NCBI GenBank assembly: GCA_030429145.1
Contig: JAUIDC010000001.1
Location: 810,001 to 842,000 of the forward strand
Direction of reading: 5' to 3'
Source: Candidatus Saccharimonadota bacterium
GTDB taxonomy: Bacteria; Patescibacteriota; Gracilibacteria; Absconditabacterales; Absconditicoccaceae
Length of the DNA: 32,000 nt
In this document: positions 6,364 to 27,705 of the stretch, piece by piece
How the letters are laid out: the number at the start of each line of letters is the position of its first letter
How positions within the stretch are numbered: the stretch's first letter is position 1
The notes under the pieces: model-generated
Seen by the model: only the letters and a program-made list of their open reading frames with translations
Told to the model about the DNA's origin: nothing
The model's database searches: none
Program-made: the position numbers and the translations under genes

Positions 6364-7332
6364 ATGATAGTGAGGCAAGAAGTATTTGATACGTATTGGT
6401 ATTTTGCGGCGAAGCGTCAGGATATTTTTTTTAAGAGACGACGCAATGCTCCTCAACCACGAACAGATGATCCTATCTTGCGTGAATATAAGTTTTGTAA
6501 TGTGTATAGATCCGCTGACAGAGTCTCTCAATATTTGATACGTAATGTTATCTATCCTGATAGGGCTTATTCAGCAGATGACACTATTTTTAGAATCATA
6601 CTATTTAAAATTTTCAATAAGATAGAGACACGAAAGTTTTTAGAAAATGAGTTAGGAGATATCACTCTTGCGAGCTATGATTTTGAACTTTTTCACACCC
6701 TCTTAGAAAAGTCGTTACAATCAGGTAGTGCAATCTATACGAGTGCGTATATGTCATGCGCAAACAAGGCTTATGGTTTTGATAAAAAACATCAGAATCA
6801 CCTTAAACTTATTGAACAGATGTTCTTTACTGATCATATTCCACAAAAAATAGCGGCATGTAAAGCTTTTGAGGAACTCTATAGCATCTTTATCTCCTAT
6901 CCTCTCTTAGGGCAGTTTATGGCCTATCAACTTGCTACTGATATCAATTATTCGGAAGTTGTAGATTTCAATGAACATAGTTTTTGTAAAGCAGGACCTG
7001 GAGCTGAAAGAGGTATCAAAAAATGCTTTGCAGACACAAAAGGAAAAAGTAATGAGTATGTTATTGAGCGAATGTATGACAATCAAGAAAAGGAGTTTGA
7101 AAGACTTGGTTTAGAGTTCCAAGATCTTTGGGGTCGTGCACTCCAGTTTATTGATTGCCAAGGATTATTTTGTGAAACTGACAAGTATTCTAGGGCAGCT
7201 TTCCCAGAACTTAAAAGCAATCGTAAGAGAATTAAAGCTCACTTTCAACCGAATAAAAATAGTATAGACTACTTCTTCCCTCCGAAATGGGGCATAAATG
7301 AGAAGATAAATCAGGACTTTATTATATCTTAG
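6364..7332 (+). CDS. putative DNA base hypermodification protein (aGPT-Pplase / 5-hmdU DNA kinase helical-domain-like family)
   Basis: Uninterrupted 322-aa ORF, so the CDS call is solid. The family call is from memory of these motifs: YWYFAAKRQDIFFKRRRNAPQPRTDDPILREYKFCNVYRSADRVSQYL at the N-terminus, and LGQFMAYQLATDINYS...AGPGAERGIKK later. No P-loop is present. It needs an HMM search. Confidence 0.55.
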   Translation: MIVRQEVFDTYWYFAAKRQDIFFKRRRNAPQPRTDDPILREYKFCNVYRSADRVSQYLIRNVIYPDRAYSADDTIFRIILFKIFNKIETRKFLENELGDITLASYDFELFHTLLEKSLQSGSAIYTSAYMSCANKAYGFDKKHQNHLKLIEQMFFTDHIPQKIAACKAFEELYSIFISYPLLGQFMAYQLATDINYSEVVDFNEHSFCKAGPGAERGIKKCFADTKGKSNEYVIERMYDNQEKEFERLGLEFQDLWGRALQFIDCQGLFCETDKYSRAAFPELKSNRKRIKAHFQPNKNSIDYFFPPKWGINEKINQDFIIS

Positions 7333-7399
7333 GATGAATTAAGTTGCATTTGTTATGTATATGAGTACATCTAGAGAAAATTTAATGACATCTTCTTTT

Positions 7400-7996
7400 A
7401 TGAAAAATAGAAAAAGACTTTCATTTACCTTGATAGAAATGCTGATAGTCATCGTGATTATCGGTATTTTAGCTGCTGCGTTAGTTCCAAGATTGGCGTC
7501 AGTGCAAGGGAGAGCAAGAGACAGTAAGCGCAAAGTAGATCTGAAAACCATCTACAATGCAAATGAAATTTATAAGGTAGATAATGGCGTGTATCCAAAG
7601 CCAAACAATCTCACAAGAACTTCGGGTGATTACAATATGGATTTTCAGATATACAGTTATAATACACAGCCATGGATTAGCGGTTTAGCGAGCTATCTTA
7701 CAACTATTCCTGTAGACCCTATCAATACGTATGAATATCTCGCTGCACAAGGACATCCCCCTCGGTACACAGGGAACTTTGTCTATCAATATAGTCGTGT
7801 ACTCAATGACTGACTTACCTATGATCTGACGACACAACTTGAAAATCGCAGTGATCCTGACAGATGTGAAGTCAAATTGTACAAATATTTCTATCTAGCG
7901 ACAGGATTTCAGCCTTATTATGGTTGTACTGGCTCTACAGCAAATCCTGCGGCTAAATATATTTACGAGTATTCACCCCACTCTGATTCATTCTAA
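7400..7996 (+). CDS. type IV pilin-like protein (prepilin-type N-terminal cleavage/methylation domain), paralog 1
   Basis: Class III signal MKNRKRLS/FTLIEMLIVIVIIGILAAALVPRL. Track ORF 7355..7813 continues through TGA 7811-7813 to TAA 7994-7996. Alternative upstream ATGs at 7355/7361/7385. It shares the N-terminal helix and the C-terminal QLEN(R/H)xDPDRC and KYIYEYSP motifs with 25112..25684. Confidence 0.8.
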
Positions 7997-8013
7997 TGAA
8001 GAGTGGTATCTAT

Positions 8014-8035
8014 TAATATGCCTTTAATATGCCTT
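8014..8035. repeat. exact tandem direct repeat, 2 x 11 nt (TAATATGCCTT)
   Basis: TAATATGCCTT at 8014-8024 and again at 8025-8035, in the intergenic region 70-90 nt upstream of the ATG at 8105. Confidence 0.9.
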
Positions 8036-8104
8036 GAAAATGTAGGTAATTTATACAAAATTTTCTGTAAATAATTTTATTTTCATGTACTGTATTAATC
8101 CATC

Positions 8105-10087
8105 ATGAGGAAGTTTGCGCAGAGCCTCATAAATACGAAACTATGAAGGTTTAATTTTCGTGTATATGCTGAAGATCAAGGGAAAGAAACAGTGGTGCTT
8201 TTTACTGAAAATATTAATCCACAAAAGCCATTTCTACTAAGAGTGCATAGTGAATGTATGACAGGAGATGTTTTTCATAGTATGCAATGTGACTGTGGTG
8301 AGCAACTTGACTCTGCTATTGCAACAATACAGGAAAGTGGCAACTGAGCTATAATCTACCTCAGACAAGAGTGACGTGGTATCTGACTCTATGAAAAAAT
8401 CAGAGCATATGAGTTACAAGCAAAATGATATGACACTTTTGAGGCGAATGTAATGCTTTGACATAATCCTGATCAGAGAACATATGGGATGGTTAAAGTC
8501 GCTTTAGATGACCTTGGTGTTAAAGATGTTATCCTTCTAACAAATAACCCCTCAAAGGTATCAGAAATTGCAAAGACATGAATTAACATAACAGATAGGA
8601 GACCTCTTATTATAGAGCACAATCCAGTTAACGAAAAATATTTTACAACGAAAAAGACTAAATTTAAACATTTCTTTAGCGATGAGGTAAGTTATTATTT
8701 TTATCAATTTCATGCAGATAAAGTAGAAATAGTACATGAGATTGGCGAATTTTTGAAAAACAAAAAAACAGATCCACTATTAAAAATCTGTATAGGTGTT
8801 CAGTGTGATAGCAGAGATCTTGGAGATCAGGAGAAGACAGACAATATAATGTCTATTTTTAAGGCTTGTGATCTATACAAGTGATTTGTTCCTATCCTCC
8901 ACTTTTCTTATAAATATTCCCAAGATCAAATTTGAGATACAGAAACAATCAAAAATAAACTGCCTTTTGTAAAATACCTTCAGACTAATGACTTTATCAT
9001 TAAGAAGAATGATTTGTCTTTTATCCAATATGCGGCTGAAAATTTTCTCATAGATGTACCTTTGGATAATGAGAACTTTAACTTGGTTGAAGATGAAACT
9101 TTCAGAGAAATAATCAAAAACAATAAGGCTTTCTTGCTCTTAGATAATAGCAAATGAACAGGAGTGCAAGAAGACAAAGACGTATTGAAGGAGAAGATAA
9201 ATGCCCTTTTGAAATATGACCTCAATGATATTGCTATTTTCGGTTGATTCGGTCCAGATGATTTAAGTAATTATTTTGAGCTAAGAAGATACTTTAAAAT
9301 CAATTTTTCTATAGATGCAGAAACAAAGTTAAAAACAAATGGGCAAATCGATGTTGAAAAAATCAAAACCTATTTAACTCAACTTATTCGTTTTGATGAT
9401 CCTGTAGAAGCAGCAATTGAACAAACGAGAACTTTTCAAAATCAGAATAAAAAAGAAGACTGGGTAAATATAGACTTTCTTGGTAACTCATATGCCATAC
9501 ACCCTGCTGTTTTTAATCCAGCATACTTTCCATCTACTCGTTGGTATGCCCAGATGGTAAATAAATATGTAAGTAAGGACGCTAATTTTTGTGAGGTAGG
9601 TTCATGAGCTGGTATTATCTCATGCTATCTAGCTAAAGAAAATTCTAAACTCAAAATTCTCGCGACGGATATAAATCCTTTTGCCACAGAAAACACTTTA
9701 TATAATGCTGAAAAGAACGGCGTAGAAGATAGAATTCAAGTTGTCACTGGAGATGTATTAGATAATGTTGGTAGTATAAAATTTGATACTATCTTTTGGT
9801 CTATGCCATTTGGATTCCTTGATCCATGATTAAACGTAGACCTAGAAGAGGCACAATTCTTTGATCCAGGATATAGGGCGATCAGAAAGTTTCTAAAAGA
9901 CTGTAAAAATCACCTGCATGAAAATGGACAAATACTGATCTGATTCTCGACAGACTTGGGTAATTATGATTTGTTAAAAGATATATGCGATCAGAATAAT
10001 ATAAGACTCGAGAAGCTAGAAGAGATAGAAATGCAAGAAAAAGATGTTGTTAAATTTGAGGTGTTTAAGTGAGTTTATGAGAGATAA
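8105..10087 (+). CDS. three-domain fusion protein: GTP cyclohydrolase II / TrpF(PRAI)-like TIM barrel / class I SAM-dependent methyltransferase
   Basis: Invisible in the standard-code track. One frame is open for 660 codons from ATG 8105 to TAA 10085-10087 if 15 in-frame TGA are read as Gly. GCH II motifs: [29 protein letters not shown][G]RGI[G]L (TGA 8372-8374 and 8384-8386), ANVML[G][21 protein letters not shown]-like motifs: [14 protein letters not shown][G][15 protein letters not shown][G][30 protein letters not shown]. MTase motifs: HPAVFNP, EVGS[G]AGIIS (TGA 9605-9607), [17 protein letters not shown]. Confidence 0.8.
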
Positions 10088-10183
10088 TTCGTTCTTAGAG
10101 ACCAATAATAGATATTCAGTCAACCCTCTGGCTATGTGTGATAATTTTACATTTTTTTTGACTTTTAACTAGTATTCAAAATT

Positions 10184-10212
10184 AAAAAAATCCCCGCCAT
10201 AGGCTAAGGGAT
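10184..10212 (-). terminator. rho-independent terminator candidate
   Basis: Reverse strand reads ATCCC-TTA-GCC-TAT-GGC-G-GGGAT followed by TTTTTTT (A-run 10184-10190 on the + strand). Located 25 nt downstream of the stop of 10237..10467. Confidence 0.45.
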
Positions 10213-10236
10213 GTTCAATAGTTTTAGCATTAAGAC

Positions 10237-10467
10237 CTAAGCAAAGCCTTCAATCCAGTTTCTTACACTTATAGCATTGGTGCTATCTACAGTTGGTAAT
10301 AAATCTATACCTACATGCCCACGCGTTTCATCTGACTTGTTTAGATCTGATAGCATTGATGCAATTGCATTAGGTAGATCATTATTATCCACATATTCGA
10401 GTGCTCTTTTTTTGCACCACTCGATATGTTCTGTTCTTTCAGTCGCATTTGTTTTTTTATCTGCCAT
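10237..10467 (-). CDS. hypothetical small protein (76 aa)
   Basis: Uninterrupted ORF, ATG 10465-10467, TAG 10237-10239 (MADKKTNATERTEHIEWCKKRALEYVDNNDLPNAIASML...). It has its own promoter-like element upstream and a terminator downstream. No family recognised. Confidence 0.6.
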   Translation of the reverse strand: MADKKTNATERTEHIEWCKKRALEYVDNNDLPNAIASMLSDLNKSDETRGHVGIDLLPTVDSTNAISVRNWIEGFA

Positions 10468-10487
10468 GTTTTATGTTTTGTAGCCTT

Positions 10488-10515
10488 ATTATAAGTTATA
10501 TATTATATAAGTCAA
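10488..10515 (-). promoter_or_regulatory. sigma-70-type promoter candidate
   Basis: Reverse strand: TTGACT (10510-10515), 16-nt spacer, TATAAT (10488-10493). About 20 nt upstream of the ATG at 10467. Confidence 0.45.
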
Positions 10516-10591
10516 TATAATAGTGTCCAATAAAAAAATAGCTAATTCTATTTATTATAAGCTACTTTTTGAGGCGATGAGAGTTGCACAC

Positions 10592-11413
10592 TTAATCTTC
10601 TTCCTGCTCTCCCTCAGTCCTTTTCTTCTCCTCCTCCGTCAGCTCTTTAATCTGATCTCTTAGCTCAGCGGCTTTTTCGAACTCTCGGGCTGCGATGGCT
10701 TCGTCGAGTTGACGTTTGAGTTCTTCTGCCATGATCTCTTTTTCTTTTTTCGTGAGTCTCTTGAGTCTCTTTGTTTTCCCACGAGTGAGTGATTTGAACT
10801 CTTGTTCTAGTTCTTCATCGGTCTTCACGACTTCAAGATCTTTGATGTTGGAAATAGCCACTTTTGGTGTGATGTCATGTACTTTATTGTGTTCCATCTG
10901 TGTATGTCTTCTACGATAGGTCTCCCAAAGTGCTTTGATGACCGATTCTGTCCATCTATCGGCATAGAGTACGACCTCACTGTCTGGATTACGTGCAGCA
11001 CGTCAGATGATCTGTACGAGCGAGGTGGTTGAACGCAAAAATCACTCCTTATCAGCATCAAGGATAGCAAGGAGTGTTACCTCTGGAAGGTCGATACCTT
11101 CTCTAAGGAGATTAATACCAACAAGGATGTCGATAGCACCTGTACGGAGCTTTTTGATAATCTCCCAACGGTCAGTAGTACCAATCTCGCTATGCAGATA
11201 GAAGGCCTTATAGCCACGTGATATCAGAAATGAGGAGATTTCCTCTGATGACTTTTTTGTGAGAGTCAGCAACAAGACCTTCCCATTTTTGGCAATATGC
11301 TCGTCAATTTTCTCGAAAAGATGATCCAAAAACGCAGGCAGCTTTACTCCACTCTGCACTTCGGATACCTGAAGAAATTCTTTAAGATTGGGATATTGTT
11401 CAAATGCTGACAT
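10592..11413 (-). CDS. uvrB: UvrB C-terminal half only (helicase domain 3 plus UVR domain); N-terminal ~400 aa absent
   Basis: Fragments 10592..10897 and 11042..11446 join with the piece between them through TGA 11042-11044 (DADKE[G]FLRS) and 11003-11005 (QII[G]RAARN). Motifs: [56 protein letters not shown], C-terminal UVR motif REFEKAAELRDQIKEL. In this frame a TAA lies about 90 nt upstream of the first ATG (11411-11413), and nothing UvrB-like precedes it. Confidence 0.75.
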
Positions 11414-11680: not shown

Positions 11681-14600
11681 TTATACTTTGAGTTTAGCGA
11701 TTTCCAATTTTAACTTCGTGATTTTCTGTTTCACCTCATCAAGCTTCTTTTGCTTTTCTTCCATAACATGAGACGGCGCACTCGATGTGAAACTTGGGTT
11801 GGCAATCATATTTCTGAGAGATTGCATGTAGCTTTCTTCATCAGAAAGTTGTTTCTCTAGCTGAGCAAGCATAGTCTTTTTATCCAATACTTGTATCGAC
11901 TTCAGACCAATCTTCATATCAATAACCATAGCAGTCTGGTAGTCTTCCGGCATAGCCTCCTCTTCTCCAAGATAGATAATATTTTCAGTTTTTACAAGAT
12001 CTTTTACGAGATCTTCATACGACTTCACAAAATTGTTGAAGCTGACAGTTGCTTGAATAGCGATGTCTGCATTTTCATGCGGCTTCACCTTCTGCTGTGC
12101 ACGTAGATTGCGCCACTCAGTAATCATATCCATGAGGATAGAGATCTTGAAGTCTTTTGGTACTCCTTGCATCTCTGTTGGCCAAAGTGCTGTACAGAGC
12201 ATACTATCAAAGTGCATGTGCTCCCAGAGTCTCTCTGTCACAAATGGCATATATGGATGAAGCATCTTGAGCATCGTACCAATAGCATAGAGTAAGACCT
12301 TATCGGTATAGTCTGACTTCTCACGCTTTGAAATCTCAATATACCGATCACAGAAATCTCCCCATACCATACCAACGATGCTCTCTCCAAACTGTCCAAG
12401 ATGATAATCGCTGAACATTCTCTCTGACTCCTCTATGAGCATATTTATCTTACCAAGCAACCACTTATCAAAATGATTTAACTCTTCCATGTTTTTCTCG
12501 AGATCTCCCTTGATGGCGTCCAGATCCAAACTTACATCATCGTCTCCTTCTTTAAAAATATTTGTATGCACAAATCTTACAGCATTCCATAGCTTGTTAG
12601 CAAATCTATAGTAGTAGTCTGCTTTTTGGTCACTGTAGTTAACTGTATTACCTGGTGTTGAACCGATAATGAGAGAACAGCGAAGTGCATCAGCACCAAA
12701 CTTTTCAATCACTGTCAAAGGGTCCATCACATTACCAAGAGATTTACTCATCTTGCGTCCCTTTTCATCGTTCACAATACCATGGAAGTAGACAGTATCA
12801 AATGGCATGTTCCCCATGTTGATCTCAGCCATCATCATCATCCTTGCTACCCGAGGGAAGAGGATGTCATTTGCTGTTTCTAAGAGATTATTTGGATAGT
12901 AGTTTTCAAGATCTTGCGTCTGCTCAGGCCAACCAAGTGTTGAAAATGGCCACAAACTTGAAGAAAACCATGTGTCTAATACATCTTCTTCCTGCTTAAG
13001 GATAGTATCTTTTTTGCCAGAGAGTGCTCCAAAATCAAAGCTATACTCGTCTTTGTTTTCTACGATCAAAGGCATATCAGCAAGAGCATCTACTACTTTT
13101 TCTATGTTTTTTGCATCGCCATCGAACATAGCTTTCAGTTCTTCAAGCTCAGCTTCCCATGTTTTGTCTCCAGCTCCTTTCAGCTCGTACATAGCAAGAA
13201 ATGTATCAAGAACGCTTCCTCTCTGCTCTACGATACTCTTTGAGGTTAACACATCTATCAGTTGCTCTACATTGAATGTGTCGCCGAGACGTGAATCAGC
13301 AACGAGATTGAAAATGATAAGTGTAAGAAGGATGTTTTTCTTTTGTTTATTTTTTTTGAGATAGTCGATAACAACATCCTCATCAAAAATATAGTTATTA
13401 CCCTCGATATCTTTCCATACTGGTATGCGGTGTCCCCACCAAAGTTGACGAGAGATACACCACGGTTGTACATTGTCGAGCCAGTTATGAAAGTCATGAA
13501 CAAATCTCTCTGGATAGACAGTTACTTCTTTGTTGTCGAGTGCACTGAGCACTTTTTCAGCTGGTTCTTTCACATCGACGAACCATTGACGAGAAAGTAA
13601 TGGCTGGATACGAGTGTTTGATCTTTCGCAGTATGGGATATTGTGTGTATGCTTCTCGATCTTTTCGAGGTTGCCAATCTCTTCGAGCTCCGTAATGATG
13701 TTTTCATAGACATCTTCTATCTTTCTTTTTGCATAGGTCTCTCCAGCAAGGTCAGTGAAATATCCTTTTTTGTCTATAGCAAACCTGTCCATAGGAAGGT
13801 TGCTTCTCATACCTATTTCATAGTCGACTGGATCGTGTGTTGGTGTGATCTTAAGTGCTCCCGTTCCGAAAGTCATATCTACTGCCTCATCAGTGATAAC
13901 AGGAATAGGTTTGTTGATGATAGGGATCAGCACATTTTTGCCGACAATTTTTTTGTATCTTTTGTCATGAGGACTGACAGCAACAGCTACATCTGCAAAA
14001 ATTGTCTCAGGACGAGTCGTTGCAATAGTGATGCTATCTCCTTTTCCTTGGATAAAGTATTTGATATAGTAGAGGTTCCCCTCCTCTTCTTTGTGTATTA
14101 CTTCACTGTCTGATACCACACTCTGTGTACCAACTGATCGGTTCACGATACGAGATCCCTCGTAAATTTTTCCTTGCTGATAGAGATTCGAAAAAGCCTT
14201 TCTTACAGCACGAGATAGTTTCTCAGAAAGAGTGAACTCTTCACGAGACCAGTCGAGAGATGCTCCCATCTTTTTCGTTTGCGAGATGATGGTGTTTCTT
14301 GAATTCTTCGTTCGGTTCCATACCTCATCAATAAACTTTGCGCGTCAGAGTTGTTCTCTCGTTTTTCACTCCTTATCGAGTTTTTGCTCTACTTTTACCT
14401 GAGTCGCAATGCCTGCATGATCTGTACCAGGAAGCCAAAGAGTCTTCTTCCCTTTCATGCGCTGGTAACGAGCAATGATATCCTCTACCGTCAGCATCAG
14501 TCCGTGACCGACATGTAACACTCCAGTGACATTTGGAGGTGGAAGCATCATCACGAAACGATCTTCTGGTTTTACTTTTTTTACTGCTTTCTTTTTTCCT

Positions 14601-14695
14601 TCAGTGTAGTCAGGATTGAATACTCCTGCATCTTCCCACTTCTTATACACTTCATGCTCACGGGTGTGATCATATTTTTTTGGAAACTCTTTCAT
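11681..14695 (-). CDS. valS: valine--tRNA ligase
   Basis: Track ORFs 11681..14269 and 14366..14698 are one frame, joined through TGA 14366-14368 (LDKE[G]K) and 14345-14347 (EQL[G]RAKF). Motifs: [13 protein letters not shown] (HIGH), [46 protein letters not shown]-terminal coiled coil. ATG 14693-14695. Contains an unusually long insert, described in findings. Confidence 0.95.
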
Positions 14696-14782: not shown

Positions 14783-15241
14783 ATGTTACTTTGTTTTCTT
14801 CTCTTCATGCGTCAGCATTTTTCATGAGTACATAAGCTCCTAAAAATCGTTTTGCTCTTTACAAGTATCGTGATGCTCGCAGATCTCGGCGGTCATCAAG
14901 AGCTTTCTTATGGCAACGATGAAAAGATTTTTGTGATAGACTATGATGCCTGAGGTGTTGATAGGCAGATAGGACAAGTGGATCGTTATCTGAGTGAACA
15001 TACATGACAGGCAGTGTGACTTGCTATCATAGATGAGTGAGAACAAACGCTTCTACTCCCTGCGAGTAAAGACTATCAGACTGTTTCTATCTATCTGCGT
15101 TCGTTGGGTGACGGAGATGCTGTCGGTCCGGTGGATTACTCTCTTTCCGAGTGACAGTGACGCACTGTTGATCAGCATGACAATACGACAGCTGACAATA
15201 TCCTAGCTATAGTAGTTATGTTTTTAGCTCTCTTTCTTTAA
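14783..15241 (+). CDS. hypothetical secreted or membrane-anchored protein (152 aa)
   Basis: Not in the track. ATG 14783 to TAA 15239-15241 is open only if 7 in-frame TGA are Gly. Hydrophobic N-terminus (MLLCFLLFM...KLLKIVLLFTSIVML) and hydrophobic C-terminal anchor (ILAIVVMFLALFL). Abuts the next gene with a 4-nt gap. Confidence 0.45.
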
Positions 15242-15245
15242 GTAG

Positions 15246-15689
15246 ATGCAACAGGAGATCTATTTCCCTGAGTGGCCTTCTCTGACAGCTATCGAAGAAA
15301 CCTATACCGTTTCATCTTTTATGCTCGTTGCAGGTATCGTGATATTTTCACTCATCATCCTTATTGCTGTGGTATCGCTCGTTCGTATTTTCATTCGTAT
15401 CCGTAGAGTGAAGCAAGACCAGAAAAACATCTATGTTGATATGGAGCTTTTTTATAAGAAACAGATGAAGCTTCTTCATGGAAAAGCATTCTTAAGTTCT
15501 TTCTATCAGTATAGTAAACTACTAGTACAACTTGGGAGATGAAAAACACTGAAAGAGATCTGGCACAATCTTTGATTTACCGATGCGATGGTTGAGTATA
15601 TCCAACAAACGATAAATGAGGGAAAAGAGCTGGACTATGAGTTTGAAAAACGTATCAAAGAGATATTACATCAACATATTGCCTCATAA
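15246..15689 (+). CDS. hypothetical membrane protein (147 aa)
   Basis: Track ORF 15246..15542 continues through 2 TGA to TAA 15687-15689. TM helix FMLVAGIVIFSLIILIAVVSLV followed by a basic stretch. Confidence 0.55.
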
Positions 15690-15710
15690 TTTTATCTATT
15701 AGAGAGTTCT

Positions 15711-17090
15711 ATGAGAAAAGTCTATCAGTTTGTATGAGTCGCTACTATTGCTTTATTTTTTTGTATACAGTCGGCAGGCGCGTATATGTTTGGTTTTAAG
15801 TCGTGGGACAATACACCAGAAAACATAAGTTATATCGAGAAGACACATGACATTCACTTGCCGATAGTTGGATTTATTTTTGATCCATGGGATGACTGGG
15901 GTGAAGCAACTATTATTCGTGCTGTGAAGGAGCTTGGGAAAGAGAGAATCTATCATATCACGATCTCTCCAGGGATGAGAACAGCAAAGCAGGTTGCAGA
16001 TGGAGAGTTTGATGATCAATATAAGAAGTTTTTTCTGTTAGTGAAGACGCTCGATATCAACGTGATATTCAGAACGATGCATGAGATGAATGGTGGACGA
16101 TATCCGCGAGGTTCAGATCCTGAGAACTTTCAGAAAGCTTGGAGACGTGCCTGGGAGCTTTCGAGAGAGGTCGGTCTCACACAGAAGAATATCCTGTTCA
16201 ATATGTCGGTCAATGGTTGGGATATTCCAACACACGACCCATTCCCAAATCAAAAGTCGGTGCTGTTTTACTGTAAGATGAGCGATAAGGCTCGCCTGGG
16301 CTGTCCGACTTTTGAGGACTACTACCCCGGACCTGACTACGTAGATATCATGGGTATGAGCTTTTATAACCGATGAAAAGGTAATGGAAACTACCAGTGG
16401 CTCTATCCCTATGATATCATCAACAATAGTCAGTGGCGTACACTAGATAGATTGAAAGAGTACGGCAAACCTCTCTTTATTGATGAGGTTGGTACGACCA
16501 GTGTTTGGTATGATGGGCATTATAATTTTGATAGATCAAAACAGGTCTATGACACAACAGCTATTTATAAAAATGATTGGCTACGTTCACTGAGAGATTT
16601 CATGTACAATGAACCACTCATAGTAGGTGGTATCTACTTCAATATCGATTTGACGAATGGATTGTCTCGTCGAGTACACGGTGAGCAGGATCGATCAGTT
16701 ATAGACCCAATCTCAGAAAAAGTGTATGAATGAATTTTTGAAGTATTGGATAGTGCAGTAGAAAATAGAACATTAACTTCGTCACTTTGGAGATTGTTTG
16801 GAAAGGAATATATGATGCTCTTTGGTAAAAAAGTTCTTATAGAAAGCGCCTATCGTGAGAAGATAGAAGAGATGGTGAAAGCGGCAAATATCCATGCTGC
16901 AATGCCTTCGCAGAAAGCTATTGGCGCGTTGGATGCGCAGAAAGGACATATTTCTATGAAGACACATTTGAAAAAATATCAAAAAAATGAGTATCTCCAA
17001 GCGATAGAGTATGCTAAGATGTTCTTTGCAGAGCATCCGGATCCGGCTGAAACCATTGCTGAGCGTCTTCCTCAGCGTGTGAGAAAATAG
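15711..17090 (+). CDS. secreted glycoside-hydrolase-like protein (GH26/mannanase-like barrel) with C-terminal extension
   Basis: Track ORFs 15786..16376, 16452..16733 and 16746..17090 are in frame with ATG 15711 and join through 3 TGA. Signal peptide MRKVYQFV[G]VATIALFFCIQSAGA. GH26-like motifs: FRTMHEMNGGRYPRG (acid/base region) and KPLFIDEVGT (nucleophile region). The family call is by motif only. Confidence 0.55.
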
Positions 17091-17658
17091 TGTTCGTTTC
17101 ATCGCCGTTGGCACAGACGATATAGCCAGTTTTCTCTGCAGTATCGTAGATAGCAGACCAAAGATCTTCTCGATCGAGGTCTGTTTTTTTTGTATTGATA
17201 ATAAGAGGCGTAATCGACTCTATCTTATGGTAACTTCTCAGAAAAGGTAGTTGTCCTACAATTGGGTCTGCATGCTGTGCAAAAAGTTCGTTGTCTACAG
17301 TGAGATGATCAAGATTTTGAAGAAGGGAATACTCTGTAGAGAGCTCGCCAAAGTAAGCGTGTAATGACTCATAGTCACAGGTAAGAAAGGTTATATCTGT
17401 GTCCAGTTTTGCCAGAGCAATCACTACTACTCTTTCAGGCTTATAGGCTTGTAGCCGATATCTGTGTAGCGCTGCCTGCATGAGTCCAGTATCAAAATAG
17501 CTACCATATGGCATAATGATACCACTACCAAAAGGCTGTTCTTTCAGTGTCTCCTCCAAGCGATCTGCCGACAAGAAAAGCTGCAGAGTCAGCTGGTGCA
17601 ATATCTGCGGATGTGTTGGGAAGTAACGAGTTCTCGGGTAGAATATTTTTGTCTGCAT
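17014..17658 (-). CDS. MEMO1 / AmmeMemoRadiSam system protein B-like protein
   Basis: Uninterrupted 214-aa ORF with N-terminal FYP...IIMPYGSYFDTGLMQAAL. This resembles the Memo motif PHAGYxYSG, but with the His replaced. Its last 77 nt overlap the convergent gene 15711..17090. Confidence 0.45.
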   Translation of the reverse strand: MQTKIFYPRTRYFPTHPQILHQLTLQLFLSADRLEETLKEQPFGSGIIMPYGSYFDTGLMQAALHRYRLQAYKPERVVVIALAKLDTDITFLTCDYESLHAYFGELSTEYSLLQNLDHLTVDNELFAQHADPIVGQLPFLRSYHKIESITPLIINTKKTDLDREDLWSAIYDTAEKTGYIVCANGDETNTIFSHAEEDAQQWFQPDPDALQRTS

Positions 17659-20198: not shown

Positions 20199-21554
20199 CT
20201 ACTTATAAGGCAATGGAAATTTCTGCGTCAATGCCTTCACTGCTGTGGCTAACTTCTTCATCATTTTCTTATCATCGTGTGCTAACAAACATAGTTCTAT
20301 AATAGTGGCCACCTGCGTCATCTCTTTTTTTCACATACCTCTCGTCGTCAACGCAGCAGTTCCTATCCTTATCCCGCTTGGATCAAGCGGCGATCTCTTA
20401 TCGAAGGGAATCATATTTTTATTGACGGTGATACCTATGCTTTCAAGGAGTCATTGGACCTTATCTCCTGTCAATCATGTCTTCTCTGTCCCTCGGAATG
20501 CACTAGTGACATCGATGAGTAATAGATGATTGTCTGTTCACTCAGTAATAACATTCCAGCCACGATCGACGAACTCTTTTGCAAGGTGCTGAGCATTTTC
20601 GATAACTCTTTTTGCATATGTCTTAAAAGCTGGCTGCATAGCCTCGTCAAAAGCGATAGCTTTTGCAGCATATGAGTGGACATGTGGTCCTCATTGAATA
20701 CCTGGAAATACTCCTCTATTGATAGCTTTGCCAAGTTGTCTAGAGTCATTTTTATAGTAGATTAGTCCTCCTCTTGGTCAGCGCAGTGTTTTATGTGTTG
20801 TTGTTGTCACAACATCAAAATCATTTCGTGGTCCTTCTAGCTGTCCTCCGGCGATAAGTCCTGCGATATGTGCAATATCAGCCATGAGAATAGGTGTATA
20901 TTTGTGTTTTTTTTGTACTTTTTTTGCAATCTGTCTGAATTTTGCCCGATCAAGATTTCTCGGATATGCAGAAAATCATGCGATGATAATCTTTGGCTTG
21001 TGTTTCAACGCTTTCTCCTCGATCTCTTTATAGTCTATCAGGTGCGTTTTGTCGCTGACACCATAAGAAACGACCTTGTACAACAGGCCTGAAATACTCA
21101 GTTTGTGCCCATGAGTCAGGTGTCAGCCCGCAGCCAAATCCATGCCAAGGATAGTATCCCCAGGCTTGAGCAGAGACAAGAACACTGCAGCATTTGCTGG
21201 TGACCCGCTCAGCGCCTGGACGTTCACCCCCCAGTCAGCACTTGCCATGTACTGCTGCATCTTGACCGCATAGTCAGCACTTGAAATCTTTAGTCTGCTA
21301 TTTTTCTTGATGAGTTTCATCATCGCTAAAGCTCTATACTGACAGAGAGATTCTAGTTTATCGACATTCTCCTGACCGCCATAGTAGCGAACTCCAGGAT
21401 ATCCTTCGCTATATTTGTTGGTAAACACATTGCCCATGGCGTTCATCACTGTGGGCGAAATATGGTTCTCTGACGCTATCATCTCGAGTCTCTCCTGCTG
21501 ACGCTTCGTCTCTTGTTTTATCAGAAAATTGATCTCTTTGTCGGTTTTTGGCAT
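20199..21554 (-). CDS. glyA: serine hydroxymethyltransferase
   Basis: Only the first 143 aa (21123..21554) appear in the track. The rest reads through 8 in-frame TGA to TAG 20199-20201. Motifs: [26 protein letters not shown][G][17 protein letters not shown][G]PRGG (TGA 20778-20780), FPGIQ[G]GP, TE[G][24 protein letters not shown]. 451 aa. Confidence 0.95.
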
Positions 21555-25756: not shown

Positions 25757-26299
25757 ATGAAAGAGATATCGAGAAAAGCTTTTACATTGATAGAGATGCT
25801 AATAGTGATCGTCATTATTGGTATTTTAGCAGCGGCTCTCGTACCAAGGCTTCAGTCTGTACAAGCAAGAGCAAGGGACAGCAAAAGAAAAGTAGACCTC
25901 AGGACTATTGCGAATGCAAACGAAATTCACAGGTTTGACTATGGAGTGTATGCTAAAGCAGGGACATGTTCCTACAATGTTGGTGGTTGTTATATATACA
26001 GCACAGGTGGTTACAATCCTTGGATACCTATGCTTTCAGGTGTGATGTCCTCTCTCCCTAAAGATCCCATCAATAATCTACCGACACCGTTCTCAACTAC
26101 AGGTAACTACTCATATATGTATGGCAATGTGCATGATGGTAATGAAGCGTATTTCGACCTGTATGCTCAGCTGGAGAATCATAATGATCCAGATAGATGT
26201 GCTATCCAGCAGTATGTCACGAATAAACCTGACAATACAGTTGTTCTTTGTTCCTATCCGGCACCAAGATGGCTACTCTATGTTGTATCTGCATATTAA
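25757..26299 (+). CDS. type IV pilin-like protein, paralog 3
   Basis: Uninterrupted 180-aa ORF: MKEISRKA/FTLIEMLIVIVIIGILAAALVPRLQSVQARARDSKRKVDLRTI, with later AQLENHNDPDRC. Followed directly by a palindromic terminator. Confidence 0.85.
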   Translation: MKEISRKAFTLIEMLIVIVIIGILAAALVPRLQSVQARARDSKRKVDLRTIANANEIHRFDYGVYAKAGTCSYNVGGCYIYSTGGYNPWIPMLSGVMSSLPKDPINNLPTPFSTTGNYSYMYGNVHDGNEAYFDLYAQLENHNDPDRCAIQQYVTNKPDNTVVLCSYPAPRWLLYVVSAY

Positions 26300-26301
26300 A
26301 T

Positions 26302-26325
26302 AAAAAGAGCTCTAGAGCTCTTTTT
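26302..26325. terminator. bidirectional rho-independent terminator (perfect palindrome)
   Basis: AAAAAGAGCTCTAGAGCTCTTTTT is a perfect inverted repeat with A-run and T-run flanks. It lies between the convergent pilin paralog 3 and the uridine-kinase-like gene, whose TAA (26324-26326) sits in the T/A run. Confidence 0.7.
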
Positions 26326-27352
26326 ATTGTTCATATCTGATATACGTACTTCACTCTGATCTTTTTTCTAATATTTTTCTTTTGTCCCCTTTTTTATAAT
26401 GAATGGCCTCGTAGGCAAAGTGTGTCTCATAGTTGAGCCCTGCAACCTGTAAAAGGTTGTGTAGTTGCGTCAGTATCCCTGCCTTTGCGAGAGAAAGAGA
26501 TATATGCTCAATAGTGTTTTGATCTCCATGTTTTGTTGATCTTGTCTTGGCAATGGTTACCGACTTCATGATACCATCTTTCTTATCATAATGTTCCCCA
26601 ATGATCAATTTACCATTTGAGTCATCTGAGGTGTCATTGTAAATGTAATTAACAATATACTCCTCTTCTATCTTATTTTCTCCCGGCTCTTTACCGTTCC
26701 ATGGCTCGCGCAACATCACCTTACCATCTTTTTCTAGGATGTCATAGTAGTTATGAATCACCAAGTCTGCCTTTTCTTGTTGATGTCTACCAAAAATATT
26801 CCACATTGGATAGACATTATTGAGTGCTCCTACTACCATATAGAGAGGCTCTCCTACTCTACCTGGATCTCTCAGGAGACGTCTTATCACAAGATCTTCT
26901 TCAGGAGCAGTTACATAAATTTTAAATGGATTGTGCTTATCGGTCAGTTTTGTAATAGTGTAGAGTCATTCTATGATAATATAGTCATAATGCCCACTAA
27001 GTGTGATAGCAATATCTCTCTTACTTTCCTTGAAATTGTAGGTAGGCATATCAAATGTCTGCTTGTGCATATACTGGTCTATATGCTTGTCCAATAGCTC
27101 ATACTCGATAAGGTCAGGATGGTCGAATGTTCCATACAGTACGGCTTTCAACCAAGTATCATCTCTATAGTAGTTGTCTGAGCTGACAGTGAGTACTTTT
27201 TTGCCTCTCTTTTCCAGTTCTTTCGCTATGATCTGTGCTATATAGGACTTTCCTGATGCAGATGCTCCTGCAACGAAAATAAGCTTCTTACCTGAAGAAG
27301 TAATCTCACTTAAGATGCCGTCCATGTTGTTCACCGATAGGGTGTTTTGCAT
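26324..27352 (-). CDS. uridine kinase-family nucleoside kinase with extra C-terminal domain
   Basis: Track ORFs 26351..26890 and 26966..27475 are one frame, joined through TGA 26966-26968 (IIIE[G]LY) and running past TGA 26351-26353 to TAA 26324-26326. Start at ATG 27350-27352 (MQNTLSV), just downstream of a promoter. Motifs: P-loop FVAGASASGKS, DNYY, FDHPD, PTYNFKESKR, VIRRLLRDPGRVGEP. About 160 aa at the C-terminus have no family I recognise. Confidence 0.68.
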
Positions 27353-27381
27353 TATGTTTCTGAGAGAGTTAAATACAGTAT

Positions 27382-27410
27382 AATTATACGGAAAAAGTAC
27401 TATTTGAGCA
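27382..27410 (-). promoter_or_regulatory. sigma-70-type promoter candidate
   Basis: Reverse strand: TTGCTC (27405-27410), 17-nt spacer, TATAAT (27382-27387). About 30 nt upstream of ATG 27352. Confidence 0.45.
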
Positions 27411-27420
27411 AATTTTAGCA

Positions 27421-27449
27421 TAGAAAAAAGCCCCCCGTCTATAACGAGG
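27421..27449 (-). terminator. rho-independent terminator
   Basis: Reverse strand: CCCTCGT (27443-27449), loop TATAG, ACGGGGG (27431-37), giving 7 bp with one G-U pair, then GCTTTTTTCT. Confidence 0.6.
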
Positions 27450-27705
27450 GACTTCGTGCCTATGATGCTTCTCAAGACGCATCACATACTCTTTGCATAG
27501 GGAGATCCCCTACATTTACTAGCTTTTTTCATAGCCTTTCTTCACTTTTGAGGCTATTTGGCTGCGTCTCTTTCGCATGAGCAGCCACCGGCCGGTGTTT
27601 TACAATACTAAGATGATTTTTGCTCCTTTGGAACGAGGATCAATGTGTGTGCCTTTCGGCGGTGCATGTACTTTTTTCATATTGTCTTTATGTTAGTGTA
27701 CTAGA

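Follow-up and report, generated by a model that had tools for sequence, protein, structure and literature searches.

A three-domain reading frame that requires genetic code 25

The window analysed here (the whole stretch of DNA, 32,000 nucleotides) carries on its + strand a frame that runs from an ATG at 8105 to a TAA at 10085-10087 and contains exactly 15 in-frame TGA codons and no other stop. These TGA codons start at 8144, 8345, 8372, 8384, 8426, 8459, 8579, 8882, 8933, 9155, 9245, 9605, 9827, 9941 and 10070. An in-frame TAA/TAG directly 5' of the frame ends at 8098, so 8105 is its first ATG. With translation table 11, the interval 7813–10277 of the + strand yields only fragments of 51 amino acids or fewer, in agreement with a preliminary description of this DNA, which noted that no + strand open reading frame was listed there and that the frame is open if TGA is read as glycine. 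Thirteen of the 15 TGA codons fall at positions where glycine is present in 31–45 of 45 aligned homologues; this demonstrates directly that TGA encodes glycine here and that code 25 applies. Only read-through of TGA makes the window as a whole gene-dense (coding coverage 0.72 with code 11, 0.91 with code 25). A protein in the public databases (P0001) is this same protein, its sole difference being a tryptophan at the 15 TGA positions. The gene encodes a three-domain fusion of a GTP cyclohydrolase II (GCH II), a TIM barrel of the phosphoribosylanthranilate isomerase (PRAI) lineage and a small-domain methyltransferase of the N-methylating type; the domain boundaries drawn in the preliminary description were essentially right and are revised only slightly below. 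The features are as follows:

8013..8061, + strand: upstream intergenic region with an 11-bp direct repeat, 2.1 copies (8013-8035), and one promoter-like site (8034-8061)
8105..10087, + strand: complete open reading frame of the three-domain enzyme, 660 amino acids with TGA as Gly, TAA stop at 10085-10087
8111..8683, + strand: GTP cyclohydrolase II domain, AAs 3–193 (Pfam PF00925, TIGR00505)
8693..9397, + strand: divergent PRAI-lineage (β/α)8 barrel, AAs ~197–431, without a Pfam family of its own (AF2, Foldseek, hhalign)
9398..9469, + strand: predicted helical linker between barrel and methyltransferase, AAs 432–455 (helix predicted at model residues 245–258)
9470..10078, + strand: MTS/HemK-type class I SAM methyltransferase, AAs ~456–658 (PF05175, AF2, Foldseek)
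AAs 497–503: methyltransferase motif I, EVGSGAG
AAs 521–524: methyltransferase acidic loop, TDIN
AAs 549–551: methyltransferase GDV
AAs 566–569: methyltransferase motif IV, SMPF

The surroundings of the gene within the window offer few clues to its role. The tandem repeat previously reported upstream is present, but it consists of merely two copies of an 11-mer (TRF score 46), and promoter-like matches are not enriched (15, versus 11.5 ± 3 in shuffled sequences). The significance of both is doubtful, and we rejected them as regulatory signals. No intrinsic terminator was found for the fusion gene, and the window contains no FMN riboswitch or other Rfam match. The scanned window genes include no member of the RibD, lumazine synthase or riboflavin synthase families, of the FolB, HPPK or pterin-binding (DHPS) families, or of the ToxC/D/E-like or RibD-like families, and no trp genes. 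The window does encode a folate-dependent SHMT (20199-21554; PF00464, E 1.6e-143). An HMUDK-like gene lies two genes upstream of the fusion, a linkage not seen at other loci.

The three domains of the fusion protein

The N-terminal domain matches Pfam PF00925 with an E value of 1.4e-54 (184.6 bits, cutoff 23.3) and exceeds the cutoffs of the NCBIfam equivalog-domain model TIGR00505 (223.9 bits, cutoff 205.85) and of NF001591 (239.8, cutoff 148). In its alignment with PDB 2bz0 (5.9e-48), residues C51, C62, C64, Y102 and R125 correspond to C54, C65, C67, Y105 and R128 of E. coli RibA, and all five are invariant among 46 homologues. Judged by sequence, this domain is a genuine GTP cyclohydrolase II that has kept the zinc cysteine triad and the catalytic tyrosine and arginine, as the preliminary description had recognized from its zinc cysteines.

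The middle domain is more divergent. Residues 194–456 match nothing in Pfam or NCBIfam at E ≤ 1, and a profile of the barrel family finds only QAPRTase in the PDB (E 0.17). Its AF2 model (pLDDT 82.8, pTM 0.80) has eight strands alternating with eight helices, and Foldseek aligns it with TIM barrels at E 2e-7 and a TM-score of about 0.5; the best 50 matches are triosephosphate isomerase and TrpA, with no PRAI among them. An hhalign comparison with T. maritima TrpF gives a probability of only 1.8% (E 0.028). The domain was therefore rejected as a direct member of the PRAI family. It is, on the other hand, matched (probability 99.85%, E 1.3e-30) by an unnamed family of stand-alone barrels, 45 of whose 81 members match Pfam PRAI, with no matches to another family; the top five PDB matches of this sister family are all PRAI. 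By these profile comparisons, homology to PRAI is transitive only, through the stand-alone sister family. The earlier view of the middle domain as a PRAI-like TIM barrel thus stands as to fold and lineage, and fails as to a direct PRAI match and the catalytic cysteine (below). One of the motifs on which that view relied, "KICIGV", is placed on predicted β-strand 2 and not at the β1 "KICG" position of PRAI.

The invariant residues of the barrel (H266, Q293/N295/D296, P319, D347/N348/S349, G380 and S402/D404/E406) are located on the catalytic face of the predicted model, at the C-terminal strand ends. D347, in the sequence "LLLD" with which predicted strand 6 ends, is the equivalent, via the sister family, of the PRAI β6 general-acid aspartate (T. 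maritima D126); the sister-family "LiD" aligns with PRAI "LLD" in 4aaj and 5lhf. The same alignment indicates that the phosphate-site motifs of β7 and β8 are kept. With TrpF (PF00697; PDB 1LBM/1NSJ, 4AAJ) the barrel therefore shares, by transitive homology, the (β/α)8 fold, the β6-end Asp in an "LLD" context, the GG phosphate loop after β7 and the β8 phosphate-binding motif. Unlike TrpF, which is about 200 amino acids long, it has about 235, gives no direct significant match, has no trp operon context and lacks the β1 catalytic Cys: strand 1 is YFYQFH, without the general-base cysteine of PRAI (T. maritima C7), and the sister family has Thr or Ser at the aligned position. In addition, barrel and sister family have an invariant set of their own that includes a β3 His and a β4 Q-x-N-D, both extra relative to TrpF, and an S-x-D-x-E on β8. 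The missing PRAI cysteine and these residues mean that the barrel may catalyse something other than a simple Amadori rearrangement.

The C-terminal domain matches Pfam MTS (PF05175) at E 1.2e-13 (51.5 bits, cutoff 23), and its AF2 model has a pLDDT of 88.4, so its previous assignment as a class I small-domain methyltransferase is borne out by both profile and predicted fold. The top Foldseek matches are the Asc-Orf2 carbamoyl N-methyltransferase (TM-score 0.73–0.75), HemK2/KMT9, RsmC, PrmC and TrmM, and the TM-scores to Asc-Orf2, HemK2, RsmC and PrmC span 0.64–0.75. These nearest structures are all N-methyltransferases, one of which (Asc-Orf2) acts on a small molecule. The domain has in common with the MTS/HemK N-methyltransferases (PF05175: RsmC, RlmG, PrmC/HemK, HemK2/KMT9 and TrmM; also Asc-Orf2, PDB 9L4Q) the class I fold, SAM motifs I–III and a proline-aromatic motif IV in the same position; it differs from them in being joined to metabolic domains, in scoring below every curated equivalog cutoff, and in having A/S-L/M-P-F as motif IV instead of (D/N/S)-P-P-(F/Y/W). 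Its invariant residues are E497, G499, G503, D522, G549, D550, P568 and F569. The suggestion that SMPF occupies the (D/N/S)PP(Y/F) site is right as to position, since a profile alignment puts ALPF/SMPF on the NPPF of TrmM (7wm6). Within the motif, however, invariance is limited to P568 and F569, and across the family the consensus reads ALPF; the serine in the window is not a feature of the family, and the polar D/N/S of the amino-methyltransferases is not conserved. It is therefore the fold neighbours, and not the motif, that suggest N-methylation.

Mean pairwise identity among 44 homologues is 0.68 in the GCH II domain, 0.60 in the barrel and 0.57 in the methyltransferase, with 58, 31 and 37 invariant columns, respectively, so none of the three is decaying. 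The linker before the methyltransferase is less conserved (identity 0.54, 2 of 24 columns invariant).

Distribution, split forms and gene neighbourhoods

Full-length homologues of the fusion form more than 120 clusters in the public databases, from Patescibacteria and environmental Chlamydiales, and every one of these clusters carries only the label "GTP cyclohydrolase II". Genomes of at least 34 species in GTDB carry the family. The preliminary description knew of no characterised enzyme with this architecture; the literature does indeed contain no description of the fusion that we could find, but the architecture itself is not rare. Split versions, which it had proposed to look for, exist as well. 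The methyltransferase is fused in about 25 loci and is a separate, adjacent gene in three others (L028, L032 and L037). Two-domain proteins of about 430–445 amino acids contain only GCH II and barrel, and in four loci (L009, L027, L035 and L036) these are adjoined by a different, divergent class I methyltransferase; in L005–L007 the 3' end of ribBA is overlapped by a stand-alone barrel gene. Whatever the gene arrangement, GCH II and barrel come with a methyltransferase.

Conserved neighbours, which were also to be sought, did not emerge. Our survey covered 144 genes that flank 34 loci (±10 kb), and a family was counted as recurrent if it was present in at least two. By this measure there is no recurrence of rib, fol, que or trp genes among the 144 neighbours; RibD, lumazine synthase and riboflavin synthase do not recur at the 34 loci, and the FolB, HPPK and DHPS families are each represented at most once among these genes. 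What does recur near the fusion are extra methyltransferases, MFS transporters and TrmB regulators, and in the chlamydial loci two further methyltransferases and an MFS transporter lie beside it. There is no conserved synteny, and the flanking genes differ even in an 85%-identical ortholog. Such unrelated flanks, together with the absence of conserved rib/fol/que neighbours at the 34 loci, suggest that the fusion is self-sufficient; the earlier observation that no riboflavin genes lie next to it holds. A FolD-like gene is present near the code-25 relative at L004.

Several other leads came to nothing. A 424-amino-acid gene with a Mur-ligase fold, beside the stand-alone barrel of L046, was considered as a link to folate and proved to be MurF-like (TIGR01143, E 2.6e-68; folC, E 0.0077). 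The unannotated partners of the phage-like stand-alone barrels at L042 and L044 contain no hidden GCH II or methyltransferase (no NCBIfam match; HMMs E > 0.1), no viral carrier of the fusion-type barrel was found in IMG/VR, and a fold search of BFVD with the barrel returned only generic barrels.

Proposed function and its alternatives

By analogy, the closest known chemistry is that of Chlamydia trachomatis, in which RibA and TrpF together form 7,8-dihydroneopterin monophosphate (H2NMP), as seen by fluorescence and LC-MS, and so bypass FolE/FolQ in folate synthesis (Adams et al. 2014, PMC4161248). This is a direct precedent, uncited in the preliminary description, for a PRAI-type Amadori step on the GCH II product, a combination that the description had called chemically coherent. 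Both systems combine GCH II with a PRAI-lineage (β/α)8 barrel, both would have the barrel act on the GCH II product by ring opening, Amadori rearrangement and ring closure, and the fusion family belongs partly to the same phylum, Chlamydiota. The differences are also substantial. The chlamydial enzymes are two separate, promiscuous proteins borrowed from riboflavin and tryptophan synthesis, whereas here GCH II and barrel are covalently fused (and genetically coupled in the split forms), and are proposed to act in sequence; chlamydial TrpF is a canonical PRAI that retains PRAI activity, whereas the fusion barrel comes from a separate sister family, unnamed and lacking the PRAI Cys; and the fusion family always has a methyltransferase attached or adjacent and has no linked fol genes.

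Toxoflavin synthesis, previously offered as the closest analogy, is a poorer one. It too starts with a GCH II (ToxB) and ends with SAM-dependent N-methylation (ToxA) of a GTP-derived heterocycle, but it needs the RibD-like ToxE as well as ToxC and ToxD, and no ToxC/D/E-like or RibD-like gene recurs near the fusion in the 34 loci. The tox pathway is not known to include a PRAI-type barrel.

We tentatively favour the view that the protein is a self-contained trifunctional enzyme which channels GTP into a methylated small molecule of the pterin type or a closely related pyrimidine type; its chance of being correct in this form is a little short of even. In the first and well supported step, the GCH II domain is predicted to convert GTP to 2,5-diamino-6-ribosylamino-4(3H)-pyrimidinone 5'-phosphate, formate and pyrophosphate. 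The barrel would then hold the ribosylamine 5'-phosphate at the β7 GG/β8 phosphate site, where D347 may act as the acid for ribose ring opening and Amadori rearrangement, and ring closure of the ribulosylamino product at the 5-amino group would yield 7,8-dihydroneopterin 3'-phosphate. Finally, the methyltransferase would use SAM to methylate a nitrogen, either in this product or in an intermediate. The site of methylation is speculative; a candidate is the exocyclic 2-amino group, which is chemically identical to the guanine N2 that RsmC/RlmG methylate. No downstream pterin-using enzyme was identified. The product in CPR bacteria is probably not a folate precursor, a novel metabolite is plausible, and the linkage of the Chlamydiales gene to further methyltransferases and an MFS transporter suggests that it is a small molecule that is transported. 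Overall, the observation made in the preliminary description is confirmed and its interpretation partly supported.

The most serious competing explanation, though still rather unlikely in our estimation, is that the barrel performs some other sugar-phosphate chemistry (ring closure, dephosphorylation or aldol-type cleavage) and that the end product is a methylated, possibly secreted, pyrimidine- or azapteridine-like compound and no pterin at all. The loss of the PRAI Cys and the distinct invariant set common to the stand-alone sister family would fit this, as would the chlamydial loci, which with their two additional methyltransferases and MFS transporter resemble a small biosynthetic cluster. 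Nevertheless, PRAI is the sole homology signal (45 of 81 relatives, with no other barrel family), the β6 Asp and the β7/β8 phosphate-site motifs are kept, an Amadori route on exactly the GCH II product is experimentally established (PMC4161248), and ToxC/D/E-like or RibD-like partners do not recur. Alternatively, GCH II and barrel could replace FolE/FolQ and feed 7,8-dihydroneopterin monophosphate to FolB-FolK-FolP, the methyltransferase being separate or regulatory. The same two activities do just this in C. trachomatis (PMC4161248), the family is partly chlamydial, and the SHMT in the window and the FolD-like gene near L004 are in keeping with folate use. We nonetheless regard a folate bypass as improbable: FolB, HPPK and DHPS are found neither among the scanned window genes nor at least twice among the 144 flanking genes, CPR genomes are reported to lack dihydropteroate synthase (2026 preprint, 10.64898/2026.07.13.738296), and a plain folate role leaves unexplained a methyltransferase in every architecture.

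It is quite improbable that the fusion is simply the RibA of an ordinary riboflavin pathway with accessory or inactive extra domains. Its first domain is above the RibA equivalog cutoff, the databases name the whole protein GTP cyclohydrolase II, and "production of riboflavin" is among the few predicted capacities of a Gracilibacterium (PMC10811913). Against this, RibD, lumazine synthase and riboflavin synthase are missing from the scanned window genes and do not recur at the 34 loci, the window has no FMN riboswitch, the second and third domains are conserved nearly as well as the first with the SAM-binding motifs intact, and the three parts stay together in the split versions. There seems to be hardly any chance that the methyltransferase modifies a macromolecule (tRNA, rRNA, release factor or ribosomal protein) and that the fusion couples such modification to GTP/pterin metabolism. 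HemK/PrmC, RsmC, RlmG and TrmM are indeed among its nearest relatives in sequence and structure, but it scores far below the cutoffs of all those equivalog models, the structure it matches best is that of a small-molecule N-methyltransferase, and its motif IV is atypical. Moreover, an unrelated small methyltransferase replaces the fused one in two-domain relatives, and a shared small-molecule substrate fits this better than an RNA or protein target.

CPR bacteria and environmental chlamydiae have very few biosynthetic genes, yet they have kept these 660 residues, at about 50–60% identity across CPR/Patescibacteria and environmental chlamydiae and with the three predicted active sites intact; the enzyme must therefore do something important. 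Its database label, "GTP cyclohydrolase II", could lead metabolic reconstructions to credit the carrier genomes with a riboflavin capacity that they may not have. More speculatively, and with less confidence than we give to the trifunctional enzyme itself, the fusion may be a dedicated one-polypeptide pathway that is specific to host-dependent, genome-reduced Patescibacteria/CPR and environmental Chlamydiales, bacteria otherwise without folate and riboflavin synthesis, and that leads to a so far undescribed product, an N-methylated pterin or a related heterocycle derived from GTP. Between symbiont and host, the compound could then act as a cofactor, a signal or an effector, exported or exchanged via the linked MFS transporter in Chlamydiales, and the barrel would represent a new enzyme family, sister to PRAI, whose catalytic residues are its own. 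If the proposed chemistry is true, what is a promiscuous patch in Chlamydia (RibA plus TrpF) would here have become a dedicated pathway in fused form, extended by a methylation; the barrel would define a new family of enzymes next to PRAI, and the fusion would point to a so far undescribed GTP-derived metabolite of uncultured symbionts.

The reading frame and its outer domains

The gene encoding the 660-aa fusion (8105–10087, + strand) is a single frame interrupted by no stop codon other than 15 TGA and terminated by TAA; because the preceding in-frame TAA/TAG has its end at 8098, translation can start no earlier than ATG 8105. Translated with the standard code, positions 7813–10277 of the + strand yield no fragment longer than 51 aa, in line with the preliminary description, which reported no ORF there. 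Reading TGA through lifts the coding coverage of the window from 0.72 to 0.91, the public database copy of the protein (P0001) is identical apart from Trp at all 15 TGA positions, and 13 of these 15 positions are conserved Gly columns (Gly in 31–45 of 45 aligned homologues, mostly from standard-code organisms). Together these observations demonstrate that TGA encodes Gly (code 25) in the window and that the gene is intact, so the open frame with 15 TGA read as Gly is solid. The P0001 record was translated with the wrong code, giving Trp where the family has Gly. The outer domains have clear family matches:

Family matches of the fusion protein
aa 3–193, + strand: GTP cyclohydrolase II (GCH II; domain 1), Pfam GTP_cyclohydro2, E 1.4e-54
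aa ~456–658, + strand: methyltransferase (domain 3), Pfam MTS, 51.5 bits (cutoff 23)

Domain 1 scores 223.9 bits against NCBIfam TIGR00505 (curated cutoff 205.85) and also exceeds the curated cutoff of NCBIfam NF001591. When it is aligned to E. coli RibA (2bz0, E 5.9e-48), C51, C62 and C64 fall on the zinc cysteines C54, C65 and C67, and Y102 and R125 on Y105 and R128; all five residues are invariant across 46 homologues. The cutoffs and these catalytic and zinc residues bear out its initial identification as GCH II, and by its sequence it should be catalytically competent.

Domain 3 also matches HemK2-like and PrmC-like models, under their curated cutoffs. The structures nearest its confident model (pLDDT 88.4) are Asc-Orf2 (TM 0.73–0.75), HemK2/KMT9, RsmC, PrmC and TrmM, all nitrogen-directed methyltransferases, of which Asc-Orf2 is a small-molecule carbamoyl N-methyltransferase. 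The SAM-binding residues E497, G499, G503, D522, G549 and D550 are invariant. Profile alignment of the full domain to TrmM (7wm6) places the family motif A-L-P-F (S-M-P-F in the window) exactly on NPPF, so SMPF had been put correctly at the position of the amino-binding motif. Invariance within that motif, however, is limited to the Pro and Phe; a polar residue in first place is not shared by the family. Domain 3 is predicted to be catalytically active and to belong to the N-directed structural class of methyltransferases.

The barrel and its stand-alone relatives

The middle of the fusion (domain 2, aa ~194–456) has no Pfam or NCBIfam match. Its confidently predicted structure, made with a 30-sequence alignment (pLDDT 82.8, pTM 0.80), has eight strands alternating with eight helices, and Foldseek against the PDB finds TIM barrels (triosephosphate isomerase, TrpA; E down to 2e-7, TM ~0.5), with phosphoribosylanthranilate isomerase (PRAI, TrpF) absent from the top 50 matches. 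The modelled fold is a (β/α)8 barrel, and structure alone does not give the kind of barrel. Direct matching to PRAI fails: a profile of domain 2 retrieves only quinolinate phosphoribosyltransferase from the PDB (E 0.17), and hhalign against T. maritima TrpF (sequence identical to 1LBM) gives E 0.028 and a probability of 1.8%, covering only β7–β8.

Searched exhaustively with HMMER, 1.84 billion representatives yielded 134 proteins matching the domain 2 profile, among them a tail of stand-alone proteins of ~240–275 aa; the fusion barrel aligns to a profile of 15 of these over 218 columns (hhalign 99.85%, E 1.3e-30). Pfam PRAI is matched by 45 of 81 proteins of this sister family (best E 8.5e-12), and no other barrel family by any of the 81. 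The top five PDB matches of its profile are all PRAI:

PDB matches of the sister-family profile
4aaj: E 2.5e-6
5lhf: E 5e-5
5lhe: E 8.7e-5
1lbm: E 4.4e-3
1dl3: E 0.012

By these comparisons the PRAI link is transitive but clean, running through the stand-alone proteins; domain 2 belongs to an unnamed sister family of PRAI and is not PRAI itself. The earlier label "PRAI-like" therefore holds for transitive homology and fails for direct matching.

The sister-family "LiD" Asp at the end of β6 aligns on the PRAI "LLD" Asp, which serves PRAI as general acid (T. maritima D126). Its equivalent in the fusion family, D347, is invariant, and the β6–β8 motif pairs proposed in the preliminary description are right; its "KICIGV" belongs to strand 2 and does not correspond to the PRAI β1 "KICG". 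The general-base Cys of PRAI β1 is not kept: strand 1 of the fusion reads YFYQFH, and the sister family has Thr or Ser at that position. Invariants common to the fusion and sister families are the β3 His (H266), β4 Q-x-N-D (Q293/N295/D296), β6 D-N-S, the GG after β7 and β8 S-x-D-x-E, all at C-terminal strand ends, the catalytic face of (β/α)8 barrels. Some stand-alone barrels (L042 7001–7714, L044 4495–5292, also L043 and L045) are on phage-like contigs and carry the signature YIGITGF...HY...QLN...DPSGGxG...AGGL...SIDAE; their operon partners have no Pfam or NCBIfam match.

Distribution and gene neighbourhoods

A word-indexed search gave more than 120 clusters of ~660 aa that match the query end to end at 51–98% identity, unnamed or labelled "GTP cyclohydrolase II". 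Scanning one genome per GTDB species with two peptide patterns only, hence as a lower bound, found at least 34 loci, carried by Patescibacteria (Nomura-, Adler- and Staskawiczbacteria, Parcubacteria, Minisyncoccia), Chlamydiales (Sacchlamyda, Parachlamydiales and others) and two further MAGs labelled Gammaproteobacteria. Mean pairwise identities of domains 1, 2 and 3 (0.68, 0.60 and 0.57) and their invariant columns (58, 31 and 37) point to similar constraint on all three. The parts also occur in other arrangements:

Gene arrangements of fusion relatives
GCH II + barrel two-domain protein: ~430–445 aa
Stand-alone barrel overlapping the ribBA end: L005–L007
GCH II + barrel, then a separately encoded MTS domain copy: L028, L032, L037
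GCH II + barrel adjoining another, divergent class I methyltransferase (~230 aa): L009, L027, L035, L036
Three-domain and two-domain copies in one Nomurabacteria MAG: L009

That the parts stay together in the split arrangements as well is strong genomic evidence for a single process served by all three activities. The L009 paralogues (9440–11404 and 14979–17196), a three-domain fusion and a GCH II + barrel protein that precedes the divergent methyltransferase (~236 aa here), hint at two differently methylated products.

The window is a housekeeping region, with Pfam-confirmed LysRS, MiaA, SOD, SHMT and a HemN-like radical SAM protein, and MetAP, ValRS, Asp/AsnRS, Adk and GlyRS assigned by eye; no riboflavin, folate or queuosine biosynthesis gene is among the window genes scanned. 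No tRNA gene and no Rfam family at threshold occurs in 1–32000, hence no FMN or THF riboswitch. An 85%-identical orthologue of the fusion has entirely different neighbours. Among 144 genes no more than three genes from a family member at 34 loci, the recurrent Pfam families are MFS transporters (7), TrmB-type regulators (7), extra methyltransferases (7) and ABC transporters (4–5); no rib, fol, que or trp family was seen twice.

In Chlamydiales the fusion is followed by a Methyltransf_11/25 enzyme and an MFS transporter, in some cases with an oppositely oriented MTS paralogue between them, or directly by the MFS gene:

Chlamydiales mini-clusters
Fusion, Methyltransf_11/25, (MTS paralogue), MFS: L001 10001–14928; L024 89–4271; L025 9434–14547; L029 9428–14107
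Fusion, MFS: L030 370–3728; L033 268–3587

These resemble small biosynthetic and transport clusters. TrmB-family regulators bracket the two-domain gene in one Patescibacteria MAG and two MAGs labelled Gammaproteobacteria (L038 8141–11248, L039 7598–11480, L040 3–3801), which suggests regulated expression. Several other window genes deserve mention:

Other features of the window
6364–7332, + strand: 322-aa protein, Pfam HMUDK_hel (5-hmdU DNA kinase helical domain), E 5e-99
7355–7996, + strand: pilin-like protein, directly upstream of the fusion
10592–11413, − strand: UvrB C-terminal half only (Helicase_C + UvrB + UVR motifs, 273 aa)
11681–14695: valyl-tRNA synthetase
25757–26299, + strand: pilin-like paralogue
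26324–27532, − strand: 402-aa ORF with a uridine kinase/phosphoribulokinase-family domain (PF00485)

The HMUDK_hel domain is known from phage thymidine hypermodification; here its gene, the second one upstream of the fusion, stands alone in a bacterial housekeeping setting and is linked to the fusion in no other locus. The valyl-tRNA synthetase gene starts directly after the partial UvrB, so the UvrB N-terminal half is missing there: the gene either has been truncated or survives as a remnant. The N-terminal methylation and transmembrane segments of the two pilin-like paralogues (FTLIEMLIVIVIIGILAAALVPRL...SKRKVDL) are almost identical. PF00485 covers residues 48–223 of the 365-aa sequence scanned, and the ~140-aa C-terminal extension that follows has no family match.

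A proposed three-step route from GTP

On the best-supported reading, the fusion would carry out three successive steps, starting from GTP, on one polypeptide. Step 1, judged by catalytic-residue conservation, would be the GCH II reaction, whose product is 2,5-diamino-6-ribosylamino-4(3H)-pyrimidinone 5'-phosphate. In step 2 the barrel would convert this to 7,8-dihydroneopterin monophosphate, as homology, genetic coupling and direct biochemical precedent suggest: purified chlamydial TrpF performs this conversion on purified RibA product (fluorescence and LC-MS), and the RibA + TrpF route bypasses FolE and FolQ (PMC4161248). In step 3 domain 3 would methylate a nitrogen atom, either on that product or on an intermediate, since the methyltransferase association is universal and the structural neighbours are N-directed. 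The 2-amino group is a speculative site, attractive because it is chemically the guanine N2 methylated by RsmC/RlmG.

With the PRAI Cys lost and invariants of its own gained, the barrel may instead carry out a different reaction on the GCH II product. Three points weaken a plain folate bypass by GCH II and barrel: no fol genes are linked at the loci scanned, a methyltransferase is always present, and a preprint states that CPR genomes lack dihydropteroate synthase (10.64898/2026.07.13.738296). Such a bypass may still hold, above all in the chlamydial members. A plain riboflavin role would agree with a published minimal Gracilibacterium reconstruction that has "production of riboflavin" among its few predicted capacities (PMC10811913), but is weakened by the absence of nearby rib genes and by how strongly domains 2 and 3 are conserved. 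The toxoflavin analogy drawn in the preliminary description lacks the other enzymes of that pathway, which do not recur among the 144 neighbours at 34 loci. That interpretation was otherwise largely right, with the three domain types correct and corrections needed on the direct PRAI match and on the polar residue of SMPF.

The literature searched contains no description of a GCH II–barrel–methyltransferase fusion, and public annotations of the family are at most "GTP cyclohydrolase II" or "hypothetical protein", with one distant relative called "phosphoribosylanthranilate isomerase". All three domain superfamilies and the RibA + TrpF chemistry are already known. What is new is a dedicated fusion whose barrel is a distinct sister of PRAI, a proposed obligatory methylation step, and an occurrence confined to genome-reduced, host-dependent bacteria.
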